From Escherichia coli O157:H7 (GTDB lineage Bacteria; Pseudomonadota; Gammaproteobacteria; Enterobacterales; Enterobacteriaceae): a stretch of DNA of 64,000 nucleotides. Of this stretch, positions 22,018 through 27,903 are shown piece after piece. Location of the stretch: assembly GCF_013167455.1 (NCBI RefSeq), contig NZ_CP038328.1. The stretch is one strand, 5' to 3'. The notes under the pieces were generated by a model. It saw only the letters and a list, made by a program, of their open reading frames with translations. It was not told the DNA's origin and made no database searches. A program made the position numbers and the translations under genes. How positions within the stretch are numbered: position 1 is the first letter of the stretch; every line of letters begins with the position of its first letter.

Positions 22018-22296
22018 TTAGGGAAACTGGCGTCTTGCGTGGATCACGTTTACTACTTCAACGCTTGATGTTGTTACGCGGTATAGAATTATATAGTTAG
22101 GGTGGGCTACAATCTCACGCAAGCCAGGTACTCTGTCGCTTGGTGGGTATAAATACGGATGTTCGGATAACGGCAGCACACAACCCCTTAATCGCTGCCA
22201 TAAGCGTTCAGCCGCATCTATGTCGAAACGAGCAATATAACTAGTTATATCATCTAGGTCGGTATCTGCGCTTTCAAGCCATAACACGGGTAACAT
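22018..22296 (-). CDS. ParE/RelE-superfamily type II toxin
   Basis: About 93 aa from MLPVLWLESADTD... to ...EIVAHPNYIILYRVTTSSVEVVNVIHARRQFP, a typical ParE/RelE C-terminus; start overlaps the stop of the upstream small ORF. Confidence 0.6.
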   Translation of the reverse strand: MLPVLWLESADTDLDDITSYIARFDIDAAERLWQRLRGCVLPLSEHPYLYPPSDRVPGLREIVAHPNYIILYRVTTSSVEVVNVIHARRQFP

Positions 22297-22297
22297 T

Positions 22298-22489
22298 TTA
22301 CTGCTTGCTCCGTTCCTTGCGCATCTTAGCAAAGCGTTCTGCCATTCTGCGCTCAACTTCGTCATGGGGAATTGCTGGGCGCGGATCTGCAAGGCTCGTT
22401 GCTACTTTCGCACGCAGCCATTCGTTGTAACTGTTTTCTTGTTCAATGGTTTCAAATTCAGAAACCATTGGTGAAAGGGCTCTATTCAT
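22298..22489 (-). CDS. Putative antitoxin (ParD-like) paired with the ParE-like toxin
   Basis: Small acidic/basic protein MNRALSPMVSEFETIEQENSYNEWLRAKVATSLADPRPAIPHDEVERRMAERFAKMRKE; stop is 1-2 nt from the toxin start. Confidence 0.5.
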   Translation of the reverse strand: MNRALSPMVSEFETIEQENSYNEWLRAKVATSLADPRPAIPHDEVERRMAERFAKMRKERSKQ

Positions 22490-22509
22490 GTTTCCTCCGG
22501 TTTTATAAC

Positions 22510-22881
22510 TCAGGCGCGGCGGCATTTTTGCGCCGCAATCCATCTCGCTATGAGATCTTCCATTGATTCTTTTTTCTGCTTTAACTCGCTGATTATCTGG
22601 CGTTGCTCATCCTCAGGGAAGGCTGAAAAAATCTGCAATAATTCCAGTTGATTAGACGTTAACCCTGCATGTGGTGGAGAACCCCCCGGTTGTTCTGCGT
22701 ATTCCGCATCCAGATACCCTTCCGGCATCCCGTATGTTTGCTCTATTCTTCTGGCAGCCTTTTCTCCAAACGAGGCTCTCCCACTCATTAGTTGAGATAG
22801 GTAGCTCTTCTCTTTGGGTGGCAGAGTTTTATCTTTAAACCACTCCTTGAGACGTAAACGGCGAATTTCTTTTTTTTGCAT
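22510..22881 (-). CDS. dicA: DicA-like (P22 C2 / lambda cI analog) prophage repressor with XRE-type HTH
   Basis: Architecture parallels recalled DicA (C-terminal ...LTSNQLELLQIFSAFPEDEQRQII... vs DicA LSPKELELLELFNALPESEQ); divergent from the cro-like gene. Confidence 0.65.
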   Translation of the reverse strand: MQKKEIRRLRLKEWFKDKTLPPKEKSYLSQLMSGRASFGEKAARRIEQTYGMPEGYLDAEYAEQPGGSPPHAGLTSNQLELLQIFSAFPEDEQRQIISELKQKKESMEDLIARWIAAQKCRRA

Positions 22882-24694: not shown

Positions 24695-25435
24695 ATGAAA
24701 AACATTGCGGCAGTTGGGGTTCTTGAACGTATTCGCAGACTTGCACCACAGGGGGCGGTTCCACCGTACCGGACGGTGGAGGAGTGGCGGGAATGGCAAC
24801 TTGCTGAAGGACGAAAACGCAGCGAGGAGATTAACCGCCTGAATCATCAGGTGCGGGTTGAAAAAATCCTGAACCGTGCGGGCATCCAGCCGCTTCACAG
24901 GAAGTGCTCATTCGGGAACTACCGGGTGCAGAACGACGGTCAGCGCCATGCTCTGAGCCAGGCGAAATCCATTGCCGATGAATTGATGACCGGATGTACA
25001 AACTTCGTGTTCAGCGGTAAACCTGGTACCGGTAAAAATCACCTGGCAGCAGCGATTGGCAATCGGCTGATGGCGAAGGGGAGAAGCGTGATTATCGTCA
25101 CCGTGTCCGATGTCATGAGCGTGTTGCATGACGGCTACGACAACGGCCAGTCCGGGGAAAAATTTTTACAGGAGCTTTGTGGAGTTGACCTTCTGGTCCT
25201 TGATGAAATTGGCATGCAGCGGGATACGCGCAACGAGCAGGTCACGCTGAACCAGATAGTCGACCGCAGAACGGCTTCGATGCGTAGTGTCGGAATGCTG
25301 ACGAACCTGAATCACGCAGCGATGAGCACACTCCTCGGAGATCGGGTGATGGACCGTATGACCATGAATGGTGGTCGTTGGGTGAATTTTAACTGGGAGA
25401 GCTGGCGGTCAAACGTTGGACGTCAGGGTATGTGA
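24695..25435 (+). CDS. DnaC-like helicase loader (IstB-type AAA+ ATPase; lambda P functional analog)
   Basis: Walker A GKPGTGKNHLAAAIG and Walker B LLVLDEIG; 246 aa as for Rac YdaV. Confidence 0.75.
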   Translation: MKNIAAVGVLERIRRLAPQGAVPPYRTVEEWREWQLAEGRKRSEEINRLNHQVRVEKILNRAGIQPLHRKCSFGNYRVQNDGQRHALSQAKSIADELMTGCTNFVFSGKPGTGKNHLAAAIGNRLMAKGRSVIIVTVSDVMSVLHDGYDNGQSGEKFLQELCGVDLLVLDEIGMQRDTRNEQVTLNQIVDRRTASMRSVGMLTNLNHAAMSTLLGDRVMDRMTMNGGRWVNFNWESWRSNVGRQGM

Positions 25436-25460
25436 GAATTTTTGACGAGGTAAATTTTCG

Positions 25461-26230
25461 ATGGAAACTGTATTGCATGCACTGAAAGCGATGGGAAAAG
25501 CCAATTCTGTTGAACTGGCGGCGCGGCTTGATATCAGCCGTGAAGAAGTTCTTAACGAACTGTGGGAACTCAAAAAAATGGCGTTGTTGATAAAACGGGT
25601 CACACCTGGTTTCTGGCTGTCGAAGGTGAAGCCGGGGTAACCGAAGGGCAGGCACTACAACCTGAAGCGCCGGATGTGGTAACCGAAGAGGTCGCTCCAA
25701 AAGTTACCGCAGACATGATGGTTGAGTTTATCGGTCAGGATGGTGCTAAAACGTGTGAGGAACTGGCGGGTAAGTTCGGCGTCAGTACTCGCAAGGTTGC
25801 TTCCACGCTGGCGGTGGTAACCGCAACGGGGCGGCTGGCACGCGTTAATCAGAACGGTAAATTTCGTTACTGCATGTCGGGGGGTAATTTACCAGCAGAT
25901 CCGAAAGCCGCGCCGGTAACGAAAAATGATGGTAAGGCCTTTCCTCAGCCAGCAGGTGCTGCGTTACCAGTCCGGGAAGCCGCAACACAGGAAGAAATTA
26001 AAACAGAAACTGTGGCGGACATTGTGCAGCCGTTGCCATCGTTTACCGAAACGCAAGCAGATGAGCTGATTTTTCCGTCCCTGCGCAGGGCAAACCTGGC
26101 GCTGCGCAGGGCGAAAAGTGATGTTCAGAAGTGGGAGCGAGTCTGCGCCGCGCTGCGGGAGCTGAACAAGCACCGGGATATTGTTCGACAGATTACTGAT
26201 TCTTCCCGCCGTGTTGTATCGGAAAAGTGA
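25461..26230 (+). pseudogene. Hypothetical phage protein interrupted by a frameshift in an A7 run (25573-25579)
   Basis: Frame A (ATG 25461, [39 protein letters not shown]...) stops after 59 codons; frame B continues ...[18 protein letters not shown]... to 26230; one extra A would fuse them. Confidence 0.45.
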
Positions 26231-26245
26231 TAGCCGGAGGCGCTT

Positions 26246-26641
26246 ATGGCGAAACCTTTTACACACGAACAGCGTGAAGAACTGAAGGCCCGAATTATCG
26301 GGCTGGTACGCAAAAATGAACGCATGACGATATCACAACTGGAGAGAGCGACGGGAGCAGGCTGGCATTCAGTCAGACGTTGCCTTGTGGATGTACTGGC
26401 TTGTGGCGATTTATACATGCCCGGTAAATACGGTGTTTTTACATCAGAACAGGTGTATCGCGTATGGCGTAAGGCAGCGGAGAAAGCAACCGACCAGACA
26501 TTGATTCGAAAGTTACCAGACGGAGAAATACGCCGCTACGACAGACAACAGAACATAATCTGTGGCGAGTGCCGGAAGAGTGAAGTTATGCTGCGTGTAC
26601 TGGCGTTCTATCAGGGCAATTTTCAGGAGGCGGTACTGTGA
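26246..26641 (+). CDS. Hypothetical phage protein
   Basis: 131-aa ORF with RBS; no recognisable motif except a CGEC pair. Confidence 0.4.
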   Translation: MAKPFTHEQREELKARIIGLVRKNERMTISQLERATGAGWHSVRRCLVDVLACGDLYMPGKYGVFTSEQVYRVWRKAAEKATDQTLIRKLPDGEIRRYDRQQNIICGECRKSEVMLRVLAFYQGNFQEAVL

Positions 26642-27532: not shown

Positions 27533-27639
27533 GGTAAAAACGGTTTGCGGTAAAGCGAGAGTTAAGTAGAATTGCTGCGGGTGCTTGAGGCTGTCTGCCT
27601 CGGGCATGCCACCGTAAGGCAGACAGAGAAAAGCCCCAG

Positions 27640-27710
27640 TTAACATTACGCGTCCTGCAAGACGCCTAACATTAATCTGAGGCCAATTTCATGCTAGACA
27701 CATGTAGGTT
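27640..27710 (-). ncRNA. sok: Predicted Sok-like antisense RNA region (position inferred, not mapped)
   Basis: Inferred from hok/sok architecture: antisense to the mok translation-initiation region; boundaries not determined. Confidence 0.25.
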
Positions 27711-27903
27711 AGCCTCTTACGCGCCGAAAGGCAAGGAGAAGCAGGCTATGAAGCAGCAAAAGGCGATGTTAATCGCCCTGATCGTCATCTGTATTACCGT
27801 CATAGTGACGGCACTGGTAACGAGGAAAGACCTCTGCGAGGTACGAATCCGAACCGGCCAGACGGAGGTCGCTGTCTTCACAGCTTACGAACCTGAGGAG
27901 TAA
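27691..27903 (+). CDS. mok: mok (modulator of killing) reading frame overlapping hok
   Basis: ORF MLDTCRLASYAPKGKEKQA... in the hok frame, starting upstream of hok as in hok/sok loci. Confidence 0.55.
   Translation: MLDTCRLASYAPKGKEKQAMKQQKAMLIALIVICITVIVTALVTRKDLCEVRIRTGQTEVAVFTAYEPEE
27748..27903 (+). CDS. hokD: Hok-family type I toxin (HokD/RelF-like)
   Basis: MKQQKAMLIALIVICITVIVTALVTRKDLCEVRIRTGQTEVAVFTAYEPEE, near-identical to recalled HokD. Confidence 0.85.
   Translation: MKQQKAMLIALIVICITVIVTALVTRKDLCEVRIRTGQTEVAVFTAYEPEE

Follow-up and report, generated by a model that had tools for sequence, protein, structure and literature searches.

A probable frameshift pseudogene of the DUF1627/YdaW family in prophage CP-933P/Sp12 of Escherichia coli O157:H7

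In the 64,000-nucleotide stretch of the Escherichia coli O157:H7 contig NZ_CP038328.1 analyzed here (the window), two reading frames of prophage CP-933P/Sp12 meet at a run of seven A's. With a probability of roughly 93%, they are the two parts of an ordinary frameshift pseudogene, in which the run was shortened from A8 to A7. The frameshift is already known: the gene is an annotated pseudogene of the DUF1627 family, and the identical stretch in EDL933 carries the PGAP (RefSeq) label 'DUF1627 domain-containing protein, frameshifted'. The intact gene would have encoded a 256-residue DUF1627/YdaW protein, composed of two winged helices and C-terminal helices, just downstream of the O-like and DnaC-like replication genes of lambdoid phages of the Rac/CP-933P type. 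In an ancestor of typical O157:H7, one A would have been lost from an A8-then-T run, most likely through strand slippage during DNA replication, and the A7 allele would then have become fixed in the O157:H7 lineage. Translation from the normal start would now run out of frame after codon 39 and reach a stop 20 codons further on; the downstream 217 codons, which have no ribosome-binding site of their own, would be translated only through rare slippage. Slippage on A7 may still yield a low level of full-length protein, since the exact wild-type sequence is restored by a ribosomal slip of -1 or by an additional A in the transcript.

The coordinates of the gene, its parts and its neighbors are listed in Table 1. 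The earlier note had placed the A7 run at 25573-25579, one base too high; the run itself is present, and the seven A's are read at 25572-25578. The first frame is 59 codons in length, and its native part ends with ELKK. The -1 frame is open from 25562 to 26230, giving a 222-codon ORF with a mechanical GTG start at 25562. The run is read as CTC AAA AAA ATG in the first frame and as CAA AAA AAT GGC in the second. Upon addition of one A to the run, the two frames become a single ORF of 771 nt and 256 aa, reading ...ELWELKKNGVVDK..., and the joined product across the repaired run is ...E L W E L K K N G V V D K.... The GTG at 25562 lacks a preceding Shine-Dalgarno sequence, and no internal promoter or terminator for separate expression of the 3′ part was found in 25300-26400.

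Table 1. Positions of the DUF1627/YdaW pseudogene, its parts and the surrounding prophage features in the window
Feature	Position	Strand	Remarks
Integrase remnant	~16517-17223	-	G5-to-G4 on the gene strand at ~17119-17122, compared with the intact integrase of phage mEp460
DicF sRNA	20682-20733	-	Rfam, above gathering score; adjoins dicB
paaR2-paaA2-parE2 operon	~22018-22881	-	Immunity region, opposite ydaS/ydaT-like genes; approximate, mapped from EDL933
DnaC-like ATP-binding replication gene	24695..25435	+	Directly upstream of the pseudogene
Shine-Dalgarno-like GAGG	25447..25450	+	10 nt upstream of ATG 25461; read from the sequence, function putative
Whole pseudogene, DUF1627/YdaW family, prophage CP-933P/Sp12	25461..26230	+	770 nt here, 771 nt when intact
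5′ fragment ORF	25461..25640	+	39 native codons (helices 1-3 of first winged helix), 20 out-of-frame codons, stop
A7 run, site of the one-base deletion	25572..25578	+	Ancestral state A8, K38 K39 N40 written AAAAAAAAT
Rest of gene, -1 frame	25577..26230	+	Codons 40-256 and stop: wing of winged helix 1, winged helix 2, disordered linker, C-terminal helices
DUF977 gene	26246..26641	+	Directly downstream; own GGAGG Shine-Dalgarno
sok antisense RNA	27579-27753	+	Rfam, above gathering score; with hokD
STnc100 sRNA	31692-31864	+	Rfam, above gathering score; downstream of TerB-family gene

The proposal of the earlier note that the two frames are one phage gene, fusible by one extra A, is borne out by the O55:H7 DEC5B orthologue, by the DUF1627 match and by the phage records. 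The repaired protein scored 331.6 bits against Pfam DUF1627 (PF07789), the cut-off being 28.1, and ORF2 alone scored 332 bits; weak HTH matches cover residues 3-52 and 87-134. PHROG 630 matches the repaired protein end to end (residues 1-252 of 253, E=1.6e-131). The architecture of the family, one chain of ~220-260 aa with two winged helices and C-terminal helices, is absent from the window as it stands and appears after one A is added. The same note had named comparison with orthologues as the check that could refute it; two separate genes were not seen, and all 24 phage records with a homologue, which include Stx phages, Shigella phages POCJ13 and 75/02 and Rac-type phages, have one frame, each giving a single uninterrupted tblastn piece that covers at least 96% of the repaired protein. 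Intact 771-nt orthologues are present in O55:H7 DEC5B, PV15-279, F3113 and phage PhiR5_2; the phage gene is located at the same position and has A8 where the window has A7.

The wider family is similar in length and layout. Homologues fall into 2240 protein clusters (90% identity) at E <= 0.001; among the best 120 of them, most measure 253-256 aa, with matches to at least 93% of the repaired protein. When representatives at 50% identity were searched exhaustively with HMMER, a small family of 173 clusters was obtained. Many relatives of 220-260 aa, with identities of 27-50%, align over residues 1 to ~246. In an alignment of 43 diverse homologues, L34 and W50 are invariant, and L8, K13, A14, A20, G95, A103, G124 and R216 are nearly so. 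The 58 unique intact IMG/VR alleles contain 24 synonymous versus 20 non-synonymous variant codons in the N-terminal 56 codons, compared to 7 versus 24 in the linker; thus, the N-terminal part evolves under constraint, as coding sequence belonging to the same gene. Codons 38-40 are written AAAAAAAAT in 58/58 of these alleles.

The closest relatives are the genes encoding WP_000450876.1 (O55:H7 DEC5B, PV15-279; PF07789, PHROG 630), which are identical to the window gene after the one-base repair. They share its domain order and its place after the DnaC-like gene (ydaV) in replication modules of the Rac/CP-933P type. Like other members of the family, the window gene lies directly downstream of a DnaC-like loader gene in a lambdoid early-right operon. 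Different from them, its frame is broken after codon 39, so standard decoding gives no full-length member; on its sequence, we would file it as a pseudogene of the DUF1627/YdaW family and not as a functional member. In records of Rac-type phages, the homologue is named ydaW or 'YdaW family' and shows 60.7-67.6% protein identity, and the gene order ydaT, replication gene, ydaV, DUF1627 recurs in the Rac-type prophage of strain 493/89. The Rac-type ydaW copies examined are intact, unlike the window gene. The ydaW gene of K-12 itself is annotated as a truncated pseudogene, which would represent a different lesion.

The window gene also occupies the position of lambda ren, after the replication genes. 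The Ren-like family PHROG 142 ('Ren-like exclusion protein') gave a weak profile match to residues 86-137 (E=4.6e-6), which covers one winged helix and contains no stretch that passes alone, and Ren was not found in the Pfam search of the repaired protein. The PHROG 142 match would thus be a lead, not evidence of membership.

To locate the lesion within the fold, we modeled the repaired protein by AlphaFold2 from the 43-sequence alignment; the mean pLDDT is 79.7, and the folded parts score >90. The first predicted winged helix contains three helices (residues 4-11, 16-23 and 27-39) and one β-hairpin (residues 43-52). The second is predicted at residues 84-139, preceded by a disordered linker; it is followed in the model by a long disordered segment, acidic and proline-rich in nature, and then by C-terminal helices (residues 208-254). 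In the model, the frameshift after residue 39 coincides with the end of helix 3, ahead of the wing. The 59-residue product retains helices 1-3, but lacks the wing with W50, the second winged helix and the C-terminal helices. Judged from structure and conservation, it is almost certainly non-functional.

A PDB sequence search with the intact protein returned nothing significant. Foldseek against the PDB identified only generic tandem winged-helix proteins (e.g. ScpB, the SelB C-terminus, ESCRT-II, MarR/ArsR and Z-alpha), with E ~1e-3 to 1e-2, and NCBIfam gave only HTH regulators, all of them sub-threshold. From the predicted fold and the ren-like position, our best guess, held at somewhat short of even odds, is that the intact protein acts in the early-right operon as a DNA-binding accessory or regulatory factor.

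We searched 5,426 complete E. coli genomes for the site, using an 81-mer for A7 and an 82-mer for A8. The exact A7 81-mer was the best match in 286 of them, and the exact A8 version was present in 164; among the genomes listed, the A7 carriers either belong to O157:H7 or bear no label. In 40/40 top matches, many of them E. coli O157:H7 chromosomes, the 801 bases surrounding the gene are identical (801/801). In O55:H7 DEC5B, the orthologue occupies the same prophage and the same ynfA-side locus, and its only difference from the window gene is the extra A; the two frames were thus not brought side by side by chance. The repaired allele matched 802/802 in six complete genomes (O55:H7 DEC5B and DEC5E; O157:H7 LSU61, PV15-279 and F3113; JNE132847); the prophage context of the intact allele was checked for DEC5B, PV15-279 and F3113. 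At the CP-933P locus, A8 was found in O55:H7 and in atypical or unclassified strains only, and no typical O157:H7 carrier was found.

This distribution can be read against the published phylogeny. PV15-279 is a beta-glucuronidase-positive O157:H7 strain of clonal complex A5, the source of typical O157:H7 (A6) (PMC6256406), and LSU-61 is regarded as intermediate between the O55:H7 and O157 branches (PMC7175801). O55:H7, LSU-61 and beta-glucuronidase-positive O157:H7 all branch before typical O157:H7 (PMC6256406, PMC7175801). F3113 shares prophage markers with PV15-279, including the terB internal stop, a frameshifted DUF6645 gene and the same lysozyme allele. The simplest history suggested by these sequences would be one A8-to-A7 deletion on the branch to typical O157:H7, followed by fixation; reversion was not seen. 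Intact DUF1627 paralogues occur in further prophages of O157:H7 genomes, such as the one of TW14359 at 1.745 Mb, which has A8.

We also analyzed the variation of the tract outside O157:H7. In IMG/VR, 110 contigs have A8 and 17 have A7 at the site; the A9 and A6 versions number 0 each. When grouped by 311 nt of flanks, the IMG/VR sequences form 48 haplotypes and are dominated by A8. Thirteen of the A7 contigs belong to the O157 haplotype, and the others are singletons spread over four further haplotypes; A8 members occur as well in three of these four. Among the complete genomes, one of these other haplotypes has A7 in one genome, compared to A8 in ~147. The singletons may reflect true sporadic deletions, or the homopolymer may have been under-called in draft or long-read assemblies; the O157:H7 allele is the sole demonstrably real and fixed A7 allele. 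As the singletons are inseparable from miscalls, we make no claim that A7 recurs independently as a hot spot. One bolder reading is that the conserved A8 tract acts as a mutational switch which repeatedly turns ydaW/DUF1627 off in lysogens, with inactivation favored in prophage domestication; the allele fixed in O157:H7 would then reflect selection for loss, and slippage would still make a trace of wild-type protein. We consider this improbable. If it were true, the tandem winged-helix protein might be costly, for example, or might interfere with the host or with co-resident lambdoid prophages.

Still less probable is recoding, either programmed or tolerated, in which the full-length protein would be produced through -1 ribosomal frameshifting or RNA polymerase slippage. 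The zero-frame CUC AAA AAA AUG does hold A_AA.A in phase, and a -1 slip or one extra A gives exactly ...KKNG...; slippage of Lys-tRNA on A runs is well known. However, the ancestral and overwhelmingly common state is the in-frame A8, and therefore there was no selection for recoding. The two-frame arrangement expected of a programmed -1 site is not conserved either, as 24/24 phage records are in frame and IMG/VR holds 110 A8 versus 17 A7. Compared to the slippery heptamer X_XXZ_ZZN, the motif present is C_AA.A_AA.A; its first position is mismatched, and it amounts to the tetramer A_AA.A. Without a stimulator, Z_ZZ.N tetramers direct ~0.15% frameshifting, which is background-like, and A_AA.A is the weakest responsive tetramer even with a pseudoknot (PMC4066793). 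No downstream stimulatory structure was apparent in 25579-25660: these 82 nt fold at -23.2 kcal/mol, with z = -0.17 relative to 200 shuffles. Bacterial transcriptional slippage, as described in one review, occurs on runs of nine A or T (PMC5009743); the run in the window is 7 nt, below that length. The site resembles the -1 sites of dnaX (A_AA.A_AA.G) and IS3/IS911 in its A-rich slippery sequence, Lys-tRNA decoding and meaningful -1 product. Different from them, it has no full in-phase heptamer, stimulatory hairpin or pseudoknot, or conserved shifted arrangement, and its orthologues are in frame. With a fold no better than shuffles, and on the motif phase and the published efficiencies, programmed frameshifting was rejected; there is no sign that a trace of full-length protein, if made, would be used.

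The A run could also belong to a phase-variable contingency locus, maintained for switching between A8 (ON) and A7 (OFF). Consistent with this, the homopolymer falls within the 5′ portion of the coding sequence, its spelling is kept in all 58 intact alleles though synonymous AAG and AAC are available, and A7 recurs in five allele backgrounds. However, A7 and A8 were not found segregating among close strains: typical O157:H7 has A7, no A8 was found in it at the CP-933P locus, and A8 is confined to earlier-branching lineages, all six exact intact alleles being from O55:H7, atypical or unclassified strains. Moreover, A9 and A6 are absent from IMG/VR, an A run of 8 nt is short for high-rate switching, and the A7 singletons are compatible with miscalls. 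We regard phase variation as highly unlikely.

Sequencing or assembly error, with a true sequence of A8 and an intact gene, is hardly credible, and for the lineage allele it is excluded. The earlier note had offered 'sequencing error or ongoing decay', and of the two, decay is retained. Homopolymers are the classic site of indel miscalls, and isolated A7 singletons, like those in four IMG/VR draft contigs and in one complete genome against ~147 with A8, could be errors. However, 286 independently assembled complete genomes, produced in many laboratories, carry the exact A7 allele, the 40/40 top matches are identical at 801/801 positions, and PGAP calls the gene frameshifted. The distribution also tracks phylogeny, with A8 in the early O55:H7, LSU61 and beta-glucuronidase-positive O157:H7 and A7 in typical O157:H7. 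The least tenable reading, two separate genes for a small N-terminal HTH protein and a DUF1627 protein, matches the short N-terminal pieces emitted by gene callers (e.g. clusters of 47-105 aa matching residues 1 to ~60), but the orthologues refute it: the phage orthologues, without exception, and hundreds of clusters are full-length proteins in one piece, and distant homologues of 27-50% identity keep the two parts in a single chain. In addition, the ORFs overlap out of frame, and the second has no Shine-Dalgarno sequence.

The EDL933 counterpart of the pseudogene lies in a prophage beside ynfA. This prophage contains dicB, ydfC, one three-gene RelE/ParE toxin-antitoxin operon, a cro-like regulator and ydaT, and its genes are arranged in the order O-like gene, DnaC-like gene, DUF1627 gene, DUF977, DUF551, hokD, DUF968, rusA, Q, three tRNAs and terB. 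The paaR2-paaA2-parE2 operon and ydaS/ydaT mark the cryptic prophage CP-933P, which is Sp12 of Sakai (PMC8630535). The RusA, TerB and DUF1627 genes are listed as the conserved neighborhood of the prophage sRNAs PasA and PasC (2026 preprint, 10.64898/2026.05.13.724894). The window is 99.7% identical to EDL933 over 1-36886 and then continues into a different late-region mosaic; past that point, a block of head and tail genes is duplicated in EDL933 and carries many 'frameshifted' calls. For 34000-58000, the best match among complete genomes is 99.4% (O157:H7 ECP19-598 and G5295, at another position). Between the tRNA-Ile/Arg/Arg cluster (30669-30915) and the TerB-family gene, an intergenic G10 at 30999-31008 is the longest mononucleotide run of the window.

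The frameshift in the DUF1627 gene is not the only lesion in this prophage. The earlier note had counted two homopolymer frameshifts; a second one is indeed present and supports decay, but it is located in the G run of the integrase, not in an A7 run, and it is the only further frameshift confirmed in the early region of the prophage. Apart from the DUF1627 site, no A7/T7 run in the window convincingly separates ORFs. The T7 at 16854-16860 lies in frame inside the integrase remnant and is not its lesion. Another A7 run, at 31109-31115, is located at the start of the TerB-family gene, where removal of one A would lengthen the open frame across it from 163 to 213 codons; it may be what the earlier note took for the first A7-run frameshift, or it may be due to chance. 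The terB gene is intact in EDL933 and has an internal stop in O55:H7 DEC5B, PV15-279 and F3113.

The integrase is flagged as frameshifted by PGAP in O55:H7 DEC5B, PV15-279 and F3113, and in DEC5B the frame breaks at the site seen in the window. In the window and EDL933, the 3′ end of the integrase gene is lost along with rspA and rspB, both of which DEC5B retains; the deletion is ~3 kb in size, and its junction lies near 16544/16545. Like the DUF1627 lesion (A8-to-A7), the integrase lesion (G5-to-G4) is a single-base deletion in a mononucleotide run; the integrase lesion is the older of the two, whereas the DUF1627 lesion is specific to typical O157:H7. The prophage would thus have been defective, through the integrase deletion it has in common with O55:H7, before the A was lost. 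Since the integrase was already frameshifted, loss of the DUF1627 gene adds a further step to the decay of a cryptic prophage, and CP-933P has been described as cryptic (PMC8630535). The DEC5B copy of the prophage (NZ_CP038389.1 2600598-2628679) has lesions of its own, with internal stops in the DnaC-like gene, Q and terB; its DUF1627 gene is intact. Compared to the window, it shows 222 substitutions in 20 kb, none of them inside the DUF1627 gene. CP-933P fits the usual picture of a cryptic prophage under independent, progressive erosion.

With an ordinary pseudogene as the preferred reading, the A7 frameshift is not to be read as an assembly error or as a recoding signal. What the widespread DUF1627/YdaW tandem winged-helix protein does in lambdoid phages is a question that the pseudogene cannot answer. 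For E. coli O157:H7, the deletion represents one dated step in the decay of CP-933P/Sp12, falling between beta-glucuronidase-positive and typical O157:H7, and the A7 allele could serve as a marker of the lineage.
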